From Escherichia coli (GTDB taxonomy: Bacteria; Pseudomonadota; Gammaproteobacteria; Enterobacterales; Enterobacteriaceae): a stretch of DNA of 64,000 nt. The stretch lies in assembly GCF_003334385.1 (NCBI RefSeq), contig NZ_QOWN01000004.1. One strand, given 5' to 3'. Below the pieces are notes generated by a model. It saw nothing but the letters and a program-made list of their open reading frames with translations, made no database searches and was not told where the DNA came from. This document shows, piece after piece, positions 22,711-57,240 of this stretch (position 1 is its first letter; each line of letters begins with the position of its first letter). The translations under genes were made by a program, and so were the position numbers.

Positions 22711-22899
22711 CAGGGACATCCTTTTATCATCGGGAATACGAAAGAAAAGGGAGAATAAACGCCTTACTTATAGAACAGTGAAGAATGCCACAATTTTACG
22801 CTTTGAAAATGATGACACTATCACAGTTGGCGCATTCATTAACGATAGGGTATAAGTAAAACAATAAGTTAACACCGCTCACAGAGACGAGGTGGAGAA

Positions 22900-26123: not shown

Positions 26124-26297
26124 ATCTTATCCGACCTTTCAGGCCAGATCCTCGGAAGGGGAAGTTGATTAATTTGTGTGAAATACACATTGAAAGCCGA
26201 TTCGAAGAAAGTGAACCGGCATTTTCAGTGGCTAGTATAGCGTAAGGTACTGTAAAGTCGCCAGAGGGTTAAAATTCAGACTGCTGATAAATGCAAT

Positions 26298-26402
26298 ACT
26301 GCCTGATGCGCTATGCCAATCAGGCCTACGCAGTCCTTGCAATATATTGAATTTGGACGATTTTGTAGGCCTGGTAAGGCGTTTACGCCGCATCTGGCAT
26401 AA
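26298..26402. repeat. REP/BIME cluster between ytfL and msrA
   Basis: tgcctgatgcgctatgccaatcaggcctacg ... gtaggcctggtaaggcgtttacgccgcatctggca: inverted REP units. Confidence 0.75.
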
Positions 26403-35324: not shown

Positions 35325-35435
35325 GCTATGCCTGATGCCGATTCGTAGGCCGGATAAGGCGCTCGCGCCGCATCCGGCGGTGGTGCGCTGAAGCCTGATG
35401 CGACGCTTACCGCGTCTTATCATGCCTACTGGGAG
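35325..35435. repeat. REP/BIME cluster between ytfQ and ytfR
   Basis: gcctgatgccgattcgtaggccggataaggcgctcgcgccgcatccggcgg ... gcctgatgcgacgcttaccgcgtcttatcatgcctac. Confidence 0.75.
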
Positions 35436-41561: not shown

Positions 41562-41695
41562 CGGCCTTAGCCTGATATAGTGTGCGTAGGCCGGATAAGG
41601 CGTTCACGCCGCATCCGGCATTTGAGCATAGTGCCTGATGCGACGCTTGATGCGTCTTATCAGGCCTACAGGTGCACCGCATCCGGCAAACCATA
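41562..41695. repeat. REP/BIME cluster between mpl and yjgA
   Basis: gtaggccggataaggcgttcacgccgcatccggca ... gcctgatgcgacgcttgatgcgtcttatcaggcctac ... ccgcatccggca. Confidence 0.8.
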
Positions 41696-52051: not shown

Positions 52052-54748
52052 ATGTTTAAAGAAATTTTTACCCGGCTCATTCGCCATTTACCTTCCCGTC
52101 TGGTTCATCGTGATCCATTGCCTGGCGCGCAGCAGACAGTGAATACGGTGGTCCCGCCGTCCTTAAGTGCGCATTGCCTGAAAATGGCGGTGATGCCCGA
52201 AGAAGAATTGTGGAAAACGTTCGACACCCATCCGGAAGGGTTAAATCAGGCGGAAGTGGAATCTGCCCGCGAACAACATGGTGAAAATAAATTACCCGCA
52301 CAACAACCGTCGCCGTGGTGGGTACATTTATGGGTCTGCTATCGCAACCCCTTTAATATTTTACTCACCATTCTCGGCGCTATTTCTTACGCCACGGAAG
52401 ATTTATTTGCCGCGGGCGTTATCGCGCTAATGGTCGCCATTTCTACGTTGCTGAACTTTATTCAGGAAGCACGTTCCACTAAAGCGGCAGATGCCCTGAA
52501 AGCGATGGTCAGCAATACTGCGACGGTGCTGCGCGTAATTAACGACAAAGGCGAAAATGGCTGGCTGGAGATCCCGATCGACCAGCTGGTGCCCGGCGAT
52601 ATTATAAAACTGGCGGCGGGAGATATGATCCCGGCAGATTTACGTATCTTGCAGGCGCGGGATCTGTTCGTCGCTCAGGCGTCGTTAACCGGTGAGTCTC
52701 TGCCCGTAGAAAAAGCCGCAACCACTCGCCAGCCGGAGCACAGCAATCCGCTGGAGTGCGACACCCTGTGTTTTATGGGCACCACCGTGGTGAGCGGCAC
52801 GGCACAAGCAATGGTGATTGCTACAGGTGCCAATACCTGGTTTGGTCAACTGGCGGGGCGTGTTAGTGAGCAGGAAAGCGAGCCGAATGCCTTTCAGCAA
52901 GGGATCAGCCGCGTCAGTATGCTGCTGATTCGCTTTATGCTGGTGATGGCACCGGTGGTGCTGTTAATCAATGGCTACACCAAAGGCGACTGGTGGGAAG
53001 CGGCGCTGTTTGCGCTTTCGGTCGCGGTAGGCCTAACGCCGGAAATGTTGCCGATGATTGTTACCTCGACGCTGGCGCGCGGCGCAGTAAAGCTGTCGAA
53101 ACAGAAAGTGATCGTCAAACATCTGGATGCTATTCAGAACTTTGGCGCAATGGATATTCTGTGCACTGATAAAACCGGCACCCTGACACAGGACAAAATT
53201 GTGCTGGAGAATCATACCGATATCTCCGGTAAAACCAGCGAACGCGTGCTGCATAGCGCGTGGTTGAACAGTCATTATCAGACCGGACTTAAAAACCTGC
53301 TCGATACAGCGGTGCTCGAAGGTACGGATGAAGAGTCAGCGCGCTCGCTGGCCAGCCGTTGGCAAAAAATTGATGAGATTCCGTTTGATTTCGAGCGTCG
53401 TCGGATGTCGGTGGTAGTGGCAGAAAATACCGAACACCATCAGCTGGTTTGCAAAGGTGCATTGCAGGAAATCCTCAATGTGTGTTCGCAGGTGCGTCAC
53501 AATGGCGAGATTGTGCCGCTCGATGACATCATGCTGCGTAAGATTAAGCGGGTTACTGATACGCTGAATCGTCAGGGGCTGCGCGTGGTTGCGGTGGCGA
53601 CGAAATACCTGCCAGCGCGTGAAGGAGATTACCAGCGGGCGGATGAATCCGACCTGATCCTCGAAGGATATATTGCTTTCCTTGATCCGCCAAAAGAGAC
53701 AACTGCTCCGGCACTGAAGGCATTAAAAGCGAGTGGAATTACCGTAAAAATCCTTACTGGCGACAGTGAGTTAGTTGCAGCGAAAGTGTGCCATGAAGTG
53801 GGGCTGGACGCGGGAGAGGTGGTCATTGGTAGTGATATTGAAACGCTATCTGACGACGAACTGGCTAATCTCGCACAGCGCACCACGCTGTTTGCTCGTC
53901 TGACGCCGATGCATAAAGAACGCATTGTGACCTTACTGAAGCGCGAAGGGCATGTGGTTGGCTTTATGGGCGATGGTATTAATGATGCGCCCGCCTTACG
54001 CGCTGCGGATATCGGCATTTCTGTGGACGGCGCGGTAGATATCGCCCGTGAAGCGGCTGATATCATCCTGCTGGAAAAAAGCCTGATGGTGCTGGAAGAG
54101 GGGGTTATTGAGGGACGTCGCACTTTCGCCAACATGCTGAAATACATCAAAATGACGGCGAGCTCTAACTTCGGTAATGTGTTCAGCGTGCTGGTGGCGA
54201 GTGCTTTCTTGCCCTTCCTGCCGATGTTGCCGTTACACTTGCTTATTCAGAACCTGCTGTACGATGTGTCACAGGTGGCGATCCCGTTTGATAACGTCGA
54301 CGACGAGCAAATTCAAAAGCCGCAGCGTTGGAATCCGGCGGATCTGGGGCGCTTTATGATCTTCTTCGGACCGATCAGCTCGATCTTCGATATTCTGACG
54401 TTTTGCCTGATGTGGTGGGTATTCCATGCCAACACGCCGGAAACGCAAACGCTGTTCCAGTCGGGATGGTTTGTGGTGGGCTTACTGTCGCAAACGCTGA
54501 TTGTGCATATGATCCGTACCCGCCGTGTGCCGTTTATTCAGAGCTGTGCATCGTGGCCGTTAATGATCATGACCGTGATCGTGATGATTGTCGGGATCGC
54601 ATTGCCGTTTTCACCGCTGGCCAGTTATCTGCAGCTGCAGGCGCTGCCGTTAAGCTATTTCCCGTGGCTGGTTGCGATTCTGGCAGGGTATATGACGTTA
54701 ACCCAGTTGGTGAAAGGGTTCTATAGCCGTCGTTACGGCTGGCAGTAA
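52052..54748 (+). CDS. mgtA: Mg2+-importing P-type ATPase MgtA
   Basis: 898 aa; P-type motifs DKTGTLT and GDGINDAPAL; N-terminus MFKEIFTRLIRHLPSRLVHRDPLPG... Confidence 0.97.
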   Translation: MFKEIFTRLIRHLPSRLVHRDPLPGAQQTVNTVVPPSLSAHCLKMAVMPEEELWKTFDTHPEGLNQAEVESAREQHGENKLPAQQPSPWWVHLWVCYRNPFNILLTILGAISYATEDLFAAGVIALMVAISTLLNFIQEARSTKAADALKAMVSNTATVLRVINDKGENGWLEIPIDQLVPGDIIKLAAGDMIPADLRILQARDLFVAQASLTGESLPVEKAATTRQPEHSNPLECDTLCFMGTTVVSGTAQAMVIATGANTWFGQLAGRVSEQESEPNAFQQGISRVSMLLIRFMLVMAPVVLLINGYTKGDWWEAALFALSVAVGLTPEMLPMIVTSTLARGAVKLSKQKVIVKHLDAIQNFGAMDILCTDKTGTLTQDKIVLENHTDISGKTSERVLHSAWLNSHYQTGLKNLLDTAVLEGTDEESARSLASRWQKIDEIPFDFERRRMSVVVAENTEHHQLVCKGALQEILNVCSQVRHNGEIVPLDDIMLRKIKRVTDTLNRQGLRVVAVATKYLPAREGDYQRADESDLILEGYIAFLDPPKETTAPALKALKASGITVKILTGDSELVAAKVCHEVGLDAGEVVIGSDIETLSDDELANLAQRTTLFARLTPMHKERIVTLLKREGHVVGFMGDGINDAPALRAADIGISVDGAVDIAREAADIILLEKSLMVLEEGVIEGRRTFANMLKYIKMTASSNFGNVFSVLVASAFLPFLPMLPLHLLIQNLLYDVSQVAIPFDNVDDEQIQKPQRWNPADLGRFMIFFGPISSIFDILTFCLMWWVFHANTPETQTLFQSGWFVVGLLSQTLIVHMIRTRRVPFIQSCASWPLMIMTVIVMIVGIALPFSPLASYLQLQALPLSYFPWLVAILAGYMTLTQLVKGFYSRRYGWQ

Positions 54749-55412: not shown

Positions 55413-55874
55413 TTAATTGGCCAGCACCACATTATGGGAAAACTCTTTTTCACAGTATTTGCATTTGAGCGCGATGTCATTGGCGCGTTTTCGCACGGCA
55501 AAGCTGGAAGAAACCGGTTCGGCATGGCTGATACAGTTGCTGTTCGGGCAGACCAGCACATTGTCGATGCGCTCCGGCAGACTGGGGCGCGATTTACCCA
55601 CCACTTCATAGTTGTCGATACGGTTAACCGTGGCTTGCGGCGCATACAATGCCAGTTGATCTACCTGATCTTCACTCAAAAAGGTATTTTCGATTTTGAT
55701 CAGATCTTTGCGGCCCATCTCGCCAGAAGGCAGGTTCAGACCAATGGTGATGCGCTGATCCGTTTCGGTCAGCTTGAACAGACTCAACAGCTTAAAACCG
55801 ATCTGGGCGGGGATATGGTCAATTACCGTGCCGCGTTTAATAGCTTCAACCTGCAATTTATTATCGTGTGTCAT
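55413..55874 (-). CDS. pyrI: Aspartate carbamoyltransferase regulatory subunit PyrI
   Basis: 153 aa, [30 protein letters not shown]...; C-terminal Zn site [12 protein letters not shown]...CKYCEKEF. Confidence 0.97.
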
Positions 55875-55886
55875 CTCTATTTCCCC

Positions 55887-56822
55887 TTACAGTACCAGAT
55901 CGCGATTCAGAACCAGTGCCAGTAACGCCTGGCGAGCGAAAATCCCGTTGCCTGCCTGCTGGAAGTACCAGGCGTGTGGCGTTTTATCAACATCCGTCGC
56001 AATCTCATCAACACGCGGCAGCGGATGCAGCACTTTCATATTGGCTTTGGCGTTGTGGAGATCGCTGGCGCGAAGAACAAACTGCGCTTTCACGTTGGCG
56101 TACTCGGACGGGTCCAGACGCTCTTTTTGCACGCGGGTCATGTACAGGATGTCTACTTCCGCCATCACTTCTTCAATAGAGCTGTGCAGACTCCAGGCGA
56201 TCCCTTTTTCATCGAGCATATCAAGGATGTATTGCGGCATTGCCAGCGCGTCCGGCGCGATGAAGTAAAAACGGTTGCCGTCGAACTTCGCTAACGCCTG
56301 AGTCAGGGAGTGAACGGTGCGGCCATATTTCAGGTCACCAACCATTGCGACGTGGAGATTGTCCAGACGCCCCTGGGTTTCCTGAATGGTGAATAAGTCC
56401 AGCAAGGTTTGCGTCGGATGTTGGTTGGAGCCATCACCGGCATTCAGTACCGGTACATTGCCAGAAAATTCGGTGGCCAGGCGCGCCGCACCTTCCTGCG
56501 GATGACGCATCACTATCGCATCAACGTAAGTGCTGATAACCGAAATGGTATCGGCCAGCGTTTCGCCCTTTTTACCCAGTGATGTATTGGCGCTGTCGGA
56601 GAAGCCCACCACGCTGGCACCCAGGCGGTGCATGGAAGTTTCGAAAGAGAGGCGGGTACGGGTAGAGGCTTCGAAGAAACAGCTGGCAATGACTTTGTGC
56701 TTCAACAGCTCTGGTTGCGGGTTTGCTTTCAGTTTCGCCGCTGTCGCCAGCACCAGATTAAGGTCATCGCGACTAAGGTCGTTTATGGAAATGATATGTT
56801 TCTGATATAGCGGATTAGCCAT
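55887..56822 (-). CDS. pyrB: Aspartate carbamoyltransferase catalytic subunit PyrB
   Basis: 311 aa, [35 protein letters not shown]...STRTR... Confidence 0.97.
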
Positions 56823-56825
56823 CTT

Positions 56826-56960
56826 TTATCTCCTGACGCCTGGGCAAAAAAAAGCCCCTCGATTGAGGGGCTGGGAATGGGTGATCAACGGGAAGAAAAA
56901 CGGCAGGCCAGCGTCTTTTTTCAGACGCGGTAAGACAAAATGTCGAACACACTGAACCAT
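56826..56960 (-). CDS. pyrL: pyrBI leader peptide PyrL (44 aa)
   Basis: MVQCVRHFVLPRLKKDAGLPFFFPLITHSQPLNRGAFFCPGVRR; the track ORF starts 22 codons upstream. Confidence 0.85.
   Translation of the reverse strand: MVQCVRHFVLPRLKKDAGLPFFFPLITHSQPLNRGAFFCPGVRR
56846..56875 (-). terminator. pyrBI attenuator (UTP-sensitive intrinsic terminator within the pyrL coding region)
   Basis: On the minus strand: cccagcccctcaatcgaggggcttttttttgccc, a hairpin plus 8-T run ~25 nt upstream of the pyrB start. Confidence 0.85.
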
Positions 56961-57240
56961 ACATCCTCCCGGCAAATTGTCCGGCATTATACTCATCGTC
57001 AGAAGCGGCGCAAGCATTTGATGCAATATTTTGTCAGCGCAAACGGTTTATTTGAATTAAAAGTCAAGGTATATGCATTTTTATTTGATGTGATTCTGCA
57101 GGGGAACTGTCCTTCGGTATCAATAATTGCAGACATTCCCTGCTTTTTCCTTTTTCACTTTCACGCAATCAGATATGCATTTTATTCCATTCATCCGACT
57201 TATAGGGCGGAGTGTGAAAGCGAACGGCTAACACTCTTGC

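Follow-up and report, generated by a model that had tools for sequence, protein, structure and literature searches.

The pyrL-pyrBI leader of Escherichia coli in a genomic contig: identity with the K-12 attenuator and conservation of its elements in Enterobacteriaceae

Introduction

The region 56826-57026 of the E. coli DNA analysed here (64,000 nt in all, called the window throughout) is, as we read its sequence, almost certainly the pyrL-pyrBI leader, a repressor-free control in which UTP would be sensed via RNA polymerase. All sequence elements of this control are present, correctly spaced, identical to those of E. coli K-12 and conserved across genera, and it is due to the sequence identity with K-12 that the published mechanism can be applied here. 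The original prediction had taken the region for the classic pyrBI attenuator and had described it as known biology. The identity with K-12, the RefSeq annotation, the families PF08052 and NF007587 and the literature all argue for that reading, and the leader is indeed the same as the K-12 leader, for which the mechanism is established.

Results

Identity with the K-12 leader

An alignment with the characterised pyrBI leader had been proposed together with the prediction as the way to check it. From the stop codon of yjgH into pyrB, 440 of 441 nucleotides match E. coli K-12 MG1655 (NC_000913.3), and promoter, leader, attenuator and start of pyrB are 100% identical to that genome. The sole mismatch directly follows the yjgH stop; it lies some 275 nt 5' of pyrL, outside the leader. 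Bases and neighbours are therefore those of the experimentally characterised K-12 pyrBI leader (pyrL, b4246; attenuator; P2), except for the one base beside the yjgH stop. In RefSeq the gene neighbourhood reads bdcA, yjgH, pyrL, pyrB, pyrI, ridA and mgtA, which is the order found in K-12 as well.

The leader is nearly universal in the species. As a 186-nt sequence it was found in 5425 of 5426 complete E. coli genomes, in 5415 of them with at least 99% identity. Positions 40000-64000 of the window are 100% identical to strain SCU-104, which is not a K-12 strain, and the window is therefore ordinary E. coli chromosome. As the leader agrees base for base with K-12, where the mechanism has been worked out, it is itself ordinary and already explained.

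The leader open reading frame

The 44-codon pyrL reading frame that had been proposed on the minus strand is confirmed by translation, RefSeq, Pfam and NCBIfam. It occupies 56826-56960 (135 nt including the stop), starts with the ATG at 56960, encodes the peptide MVQCVRHFVLPRLKKDAGLPFFFPLITHSQPLNRGAFFCPGVRR and ends with the TAA at 56828-56826. A Shine-Dalgarno sequence GGAGG (56965-56969, minus strand) lies 4 nt upstream of the ATG; the alignment described below shows no variation in GGAGGA. The peptide matches PF08052 (PyrBI_leader) over positions 1-44 of 44 with E = 3.3e-34, and the equivalog model NF007587, also over 1-44 of 44, with 120.1 bits against a cut-off of 61, so that the match is of full length and above the curated cut-off. 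RefSeq labels the same 135 nt as pyrL, 'pyr operon leader peptide', immediately 5' of pyrB and pyrI.

The reading frame spans the terminator hairpin with its codons 30-36 and its stop lies 20 nt beyond the T run, leaving a gap of 3 nt between the last base of the stop (56826) and the ATG of pyrB (56822). By these positions, pyrL is a leader reading frame with a ribosome-binding site of its own that reaches through the terminator, and a ribosome translating it could occlude the hairpin. It was reported earlier that the attenuator terminator sits within the 135-bp leader gene (PMC4824070).

A further ATG (56964), out of frame with pyrL, abuts the GGAGG in Escherichia only (GGAGGATGTATG versus GGAGGAAGCATG in the other genera). 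It opens a 49-aa reading frame (56815-56964, minus strand), which runs through the attenuator and overlaps the start of pyrB. Three database entries named PyrL (P0038, P0048 and P0057) are frame hybrids, which begin in the frame of this ATG and change frame at a T run; they are probably due to homopolymer length errors or variants.

Promoter, start region and downstream genes

The -10 box TATAAT of the pyrBI promoter P2 (56986-56991, minus strand) is identical to K-12 and invariant in 11 of 11 leaders. Upstream of it, at a spacer of 16 nt, we infer a weak putative -35 element TTGCGC (57008-57013, minus strand), which agrees with TTGACA at 3 of 6 positions and lies in a stretch that is not conserved in other genera. 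With only three of six matching positions this element was missed by the consensus promoter scan, which found no sigma-70 site at the pyrBI leader. Since the -35-like element is weak, the assignment of the promoter relies on TATAAT, which is perfect, on the published start region and on the conservation.

The transcription start with the initially transcribed region AATTTG is found at 56973-56978 (minus strand), separated from the -10 box by the 7 nt GCCGGAC, and the block ACAATTTGCC is invariant in the 11 leaders. The start-region sequence of pyrBI is published as 5'-AATTTG, and UTP-dependent slippage at this site was described to yield released AAUUUn transcripts and to lower productive initiation about 7-fold (PMC7039003; PMC6524683). 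With at least three T just after the start, in an AATTTG downstream of TATAAT, the sequence has the form expected of a UTP-sensitive reiterative-transcription promoter. Like pyrBI, the promoters carAB P1, codBA and upp show UTP-sensitive reiterative transcription, and the leader shares with this group a run of three T directly after the start. Beyond what the original prediction had listed, the interval 56826-57026 holds the promoter and AATTTG, which would provide a second and separate UTP-sensitive control.

On the other side of the leader, the Shine-Dalgarno sequence AGGAG of pyrB (56830-56834, minus strand) falls within the final two sense codons of pyrL. It precedes the ATG of pyrB by 7 nt, and the CGTCAGGAG before this ATG is invariant in the 11 leaders. 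The regulated gene pyrB (55887-56822, minus strand; TIGR00670, 420 bits; RefSeq) encodes the catalytic chain of aspartate carbamoyltransferase, and the second gene of the operon, pyrI (55413-55874, minus strand; TIGR00240, 243 bits; RefSeq), its regulatory chain. The location of pyrL is thus directly 5' of pyrB-pyrI on the same strand.

The attenuator

The attenuator is an intrinsic terminator at 56846-56872 on the minus strand, composed of an 8-bp hairpin (56853-56872) and eight T (56846-56853). Read from 56872 to 56853 the hairpin is AGCCCCTC-AATC-GAGGGGCT, in which 6 of the 8 pairs are G-C. Folded alone it has -15.9 kcal/mol and z = -4.7, and none of 200 shuffled sequences reaches this stability. 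A strong GC hairpin, a run of eight T and a pyrL stop some 25 nt after the hairpin had all been predicted, and each of these statements turned out to be exact: the T run counts precisely eight residues from 56853 to 56846, the last T of the hairpin being the first of the run, and the distance from the G-C stem to the pyrL stop codon is 25 nt (TTTTTTTTGCCCAGGCGTCAGGAGA). Between the T run and the ATG of pyrB there are 23 nt, so that a G+C-rich hairpin with a U tract is placed shortly before pyrB. The z-score of the hairpin together with the identity to K-12 and the conservation across genera put the attenuator beyond chance. A terminator scan picks this hairpin independently as well; by itself the scan is not significant (2 sites versus 1.1 expected in 800 nt).

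The other site of that scan is weak and terminator-like. It is located between yjgH and pyrL (57129-57143, minus strand) and consists of GCAGGGAATGTCTGC followed by AATTATTG. Its stem has 5 bp, its T tract is poor, and it agrees with the 1.1 sites expected by chance.

The U-rich tract and the upstream hairpin

About 20 nt before the terminator hairpin, the Phe codons 21-23 of pyrL form a U-rich tract UUUUUCUU / TTTTTCTT (56893-56900, minus strand), and CTGCCGTTTTTCTTYCCGTT is nearly invariant in the 11 leaders. Judged by its sequence, this tract has the features of a U-rich pause region 5' of the terminator. UTP-sensitive pausing of the polymerase at the U-rich tract was reported by Donahue and Turnbough (1994), as cited in PMC9291695. 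The U-rich tract is a further element that the original prediction had not named within 56826-57026, and it would be the basis of the UTP sensitivity of attenuation.

A small hairpin CCGCGUCU-GAAAAA-AGACGCUGG (56908-56930, minus strand), 5' of the U-rich tract, is a candidate pause hairpin. Folded alone it has -11.6 kcal/mol and z = -3.7, and its pairs are retained in the 11 leaders with only one-sided changes of U-A to U-G. A pause in pyrL was mapped about 24 nt upstream of the site reported earlier, and in the same assay pausing was neither stimulated by NusA nor rescued by compensatory mutations of the stem (PMC9291695). The part of this hairpin in pausing is uncertain.

Comparison across Enterobacteriaceae

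A protein search with PyrL gave 66 cluster representatives, all of which (66/66) carry PF08052. They belong to Escherichia, Shigella, Salmonella, Citrobacter, Intestinirhabdus, Pluralibacter, Phytobacter and Kosakonia; a few short contigs bearing PyrL are labelled Pseudomonas and look like contamination. For the alignment of 11 leaders the window was combined with the DNA of ten representatives, so that the set covers Escherichia, Salmonella, Citrobacter, Intestinirhabdus, Pluralibacter, Phytobacter, Kosakonia and two metagenomic contigs. MAFFT misregisters two sequences with different loop lengths, and each sequence was therefore folded separately.

In addition to GTATAAT and the elements given above (ACAATTTGCC, GGAGGA, CTGCCGTTTTTCTTYCCGTT and CGTCAGGAG), the invariant or nearly invariant blocks of the 11 leaders comprise the ATG, GCGTCTGA...GNCGC, and GCCCCT...AGGGGC with T8-9. 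The 8-bp terminator stem folds in 11 of 11 leaders (-12.3 to -16.2 kcal/mol) and is followed by T8 or T9, and in all of them the T run is 23-24 nt away from the ATG of pyrB. Pluralibacter shows a single compensatory change, C-G to U-A, in the loop-closing pair of the terminator. The other changes in stems are one-sided (U-A/U-G or A-U/G-U) and the covariation term of RNAalifold is about 0. Covariation support is thin because the terminator stem and the upstream hairpin are too conserved.

Unlike these elements, the peptide is variable. PyrL measures between 33 and 48 aa, and its C-terminus is variable as well. In E. coli, C. koseri and Pluralibacter it is 44-45 aa long and its stop follows the T run at a distance of 20 nt; in S. 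bongori, C. amalonaticus and Kosakonia it has 33-34 aa and stops in the 3' arm of the hairpin (L003, L008 and L009, about 590-605); in Phytobacter and one metagenomic contig it reaches 48 aa and overlaps the start of pyrB (L007 and L011, about 640-647). The RNA elements are the same throughout despite these different stop positions. The leaders of Salmonella, C. amalonaticus and Kosakonia share the -10 box, AATTTG, ribosome-binding site, upstream hairpin, U-rich tract and 8-bp terminator with T8-9, and have the 23-nt distance to pyrB known from E. coli. Their stop TGA (AAT-TGA-GGG), however, precedes the end of the T run by 13-14 nt, while that of E. coli lies 20 nt after it.

The residues encoded over the hairpin shift the reading frame between genera (QPLNRGAFF, SPSIEGLFF, KPLFKGLFF), and every column of pyrL codons 26-31 is variable across the leaders. 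Sorted by codon position, the variable columns number 9/9/16 in pyrL codons 1-25 versus 1/0/15 in pyrB codons 1-25, which indicates that constraint is mostly on the nucleotides and not on the peptide. By this count, selection acts mainly on elements at the level of RNA and DNA and on the presence of the reading frame and how far it reaches, rather than on the peptide sequence.

Upstream of the promoter the picture changes. The sequence 5' of the -10 box is not conserved, and homology between genera starts about 12 nt before this box. The gene 5' of pyrL is yjgH in E. coli. In Salmonella, Citrobacter, Pluralibacter and Kosakonia its place is taken by a gene for an ArgR-like repressor, which is read from the strand of pyrL (L003, L004, L006 and L008-L010, 1-411), and in E. 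albertii and Phytobacter by a divergent DUF386 gene (L007, L011 and L012, 1-240).

A predicted helix between ribosome-binding site and pause tract

In the folds of the leader a long-range helix is predicted (56888-56971, minus strand), in which CCGGGAGGA (about 56963-56971) pairs with UCUUCCCGG (about 56888-56896). The ribosome-binding site and start region of pyrL are thereby paired with the U/C-rich pause tract. The helix is present in the minimum free energy structure, in the centroid and in the RNAalifold consensus of the 11 leaders, and the 95-nt 5' leader fold has z = -3.0, with 2 of 200 shuffled sequences as good. As both arms are invariant for independent reasons, the helix gives no covariation signal (term about 0). 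Such a helix might serve as a commitment step, which closes the ribosome-binding site of pyrL once the polymerase quits the pause tract free of a ribosome; this role is suggested by the folding model and we consider it unlikely. If true, late ribosomes could not restore read-through past the attenuator. A description of this helix was not found in the accessible literature.

Rfam searches and other RNA elements in the window

No family reached its gathering score in a permissive Rfam scan of 55800-57700, and the scan of the whole window at the gathering threshold returned no family for the pyrL leader. Rfam contains no family for this leader, and no covariance model supports the assignment. 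The sub-threshold matches (Chlorobi-1, Hrs1, Trp_leader, suhB and others) all lie on the terminator hairpin and were rejected as chance or terminator-driven.

Elsewhere in the window the Mg-responsive leader of mgtA was recognized, a Magnesium-II riboswitch (RF01056; 51843-51958, plus strand; 121.9 bits) directly 5' of mgtA (52052-54748). The other Rfam matches above the gathering score are an RpsF leader, the ES239 sRNA, STnc450, ES036 and two REP-derived naRNA4 elements (2828-2912, plus; 22711-22833, plus; 26185-26242, minus; 26322-26364, minus; 35348-35426, plus; 41589-41666, plus). No tRNA genes were found within the 64,000-nt window.

Discussion

Alternative readings of the leader

The site scores as an ordinary intrinsic terminator and is located 3' of yjgH on the same strand, so that hairpin and T8 could simply be the terminator of yjgH, overlain by chance by a small reading frame without regulatory function. 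But the hairpin lies about 370 nt past the yjgH stop, and the conserved TATAAT/AATTTG promoter and the ribosome-binding site intervene. The leader is moreover retained in the genera with an ArgR-like or DUF386 neighbour upstream, in which the sequence 5' of the -10 box is not conserved. This conservation regardless of the upstream neighbour shows that the hairpin is not merely the terminator of an upstream gene. The reading frame in addition is a member of a curated family, and suppression of the pyrL terminator by the ribosome has been published (PMC5021804); we consider a plain yjgH terminator very improbable. The mechanical list of reading frames also contains a 66-aa frame with a TTG start (56826-57026), which might be taken for a real gene that encodes a small protein, with no leader at all. 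The original prediction had called this frame an over-extension of pyrL, which is right, and the span it gave is that of the 66-aa frame; pyrL itself occupies 56826-56960. The TTG at 57026 is 48 nt upstream of the transcription start at 56978 and has no ribosome-binding site before it. The 22 codons that this start adds run across the -10 box and the start region and are not conserved in other genera, in which conservation starts at the -10 box. The Pfam and NCBIfam models have 44 positions and are matched end to end by the peptide started at the ATG, and the RefSeq annotation is of 135 nt. The chance that the 66-aa frame is a gene is close to nil.

Two further readings accept an attenuator but differ in the signal. 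The motif PFFFP in the leader peptide would allow an amino-acid-sensing attenuator of the trpL/pheL type, in which stalling at three Phe codons (FFF, 56892-56900) switches between antiterminator and terminator, and Trp_leader (RF00513) indeed gives a sub-threshold match over the terminator (19.7 bits versus a gathering score of 41, E = 0.68). That match is far under the threshold and comes from the terminator alone, and none of the amino-acid leader attenuators of Rfam, Trp_leader among them, matches the pyrL leader at the gathering threshold. Neither single-sequence folds nor alignment folds contain an antiterminator helix that competes for the 5' arm of the terminator. Stalling at the Phe codons would leave the ribosome more than 20 nt upstream of the hairpin, and termination would therefore be favoured and not relieved. 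The Phe codons are a by-product of the conserved U tract, and the product of the operon is a pyrimidine enzyme; sensing of Phe is thus highly unlikely. In Bacillus, attenuators of the PyrR type rely on an RNA-binding protein that selects terminator or antiterminator; they also control pyrimidine genes and also possess an intrinsic terminator in the 5' leader. E. coli is not known to have a PyrR regulator. No pyrimidine-leader family appeared in the permissive Rfam scan up to E = 10, no architecture of antiterminator and anti-antiterminator was seen in the folds, and the pyrL leader has a translated reading frame over its terminator, which PyrR leaders do not need. A PyrR-type control is accordingly given a vanishingly small probability.

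Proposed mechanism and relation to other leaders

On the preferred reading, UTP-sensitive attenuation of pyrBI by coupling of transcription and translation, transcription would start at 56978, the first A of AATTTG. When UTP is high, the polymerase would tend to slip on the three T and release AAUUUn transcripts, which would lower productive initiation. The productive transcripts would bear the ribosome-binding site and reading frame of pyrL. Still at high UTP, the polymerase would pass fast through the U-rich tract (56893-56900) and run ahead of the first ribosome; with no ribosome alongside, the hairpin 56853-56872 would form and transcription would stop in the U8, which gives a transcript of about 133 nt that ends 23 nt short of pyrB. 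When UTP is low, the polymerase would pause at the U-rich tract and the ribosome on pyrL could catch up. Sitting on the 5' arm of the hairpin during synthesis of the 3' arm, the ribosome would keep the terminator from forming and allow read-through into pyrB and pyrI. It would be the act of translation that counts, and not the peptide product. No feature of the sequence speaks against this reading.

Several reports on the identical K-12 sequence are in line with this scheme. Attenuation of pyrBI uses the coupling of pyrL translation to transcription, and tight coupling is needed to prevent the terminator; the pyrL hairpin cut a reporter about 18-fold (PMC5021804, citing Roland et al. 1988). 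At normal UTP the pyrL terminator is not repressed, and the coupling of translation with transcription is brought about by pause sites (PMC4824070). That read-through rises at low UTP and depends on translation of the leader is likewise attributed to Roland et al. (1988) where that work is cited in PMC5021804 and PMC4824070. The reiterative-transcription layer would be a second, independent control within the leader interval, which acts at initiation and not at the attenuator.

The attenuators of amino-acid operons (trpL, hisL, pheL, leuL and thrL) likewise combine a short translated leader reading frame, a synchronising pause and a terminator before the first structural gene. While systems of the trpL type sense charged tRNA via stalling at regulatory codons and alternative hairpins, the sensor of pyrL would be the speed of the polymerase at U residues. 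The ribosome would here block the terminator directly, and in contrast to trpL-type leaders no antiterminator helix is predicted.

The pyrL-pyrBI element is already known in full detail, and nothing new on the regulation of pyrimidine synthesis is added by its presence here. The pyrBI leader is a textbook case of repressor-free gene control: the speed of the polymerase, set by UTP, and its coupling to the ribosome decide on transcription.
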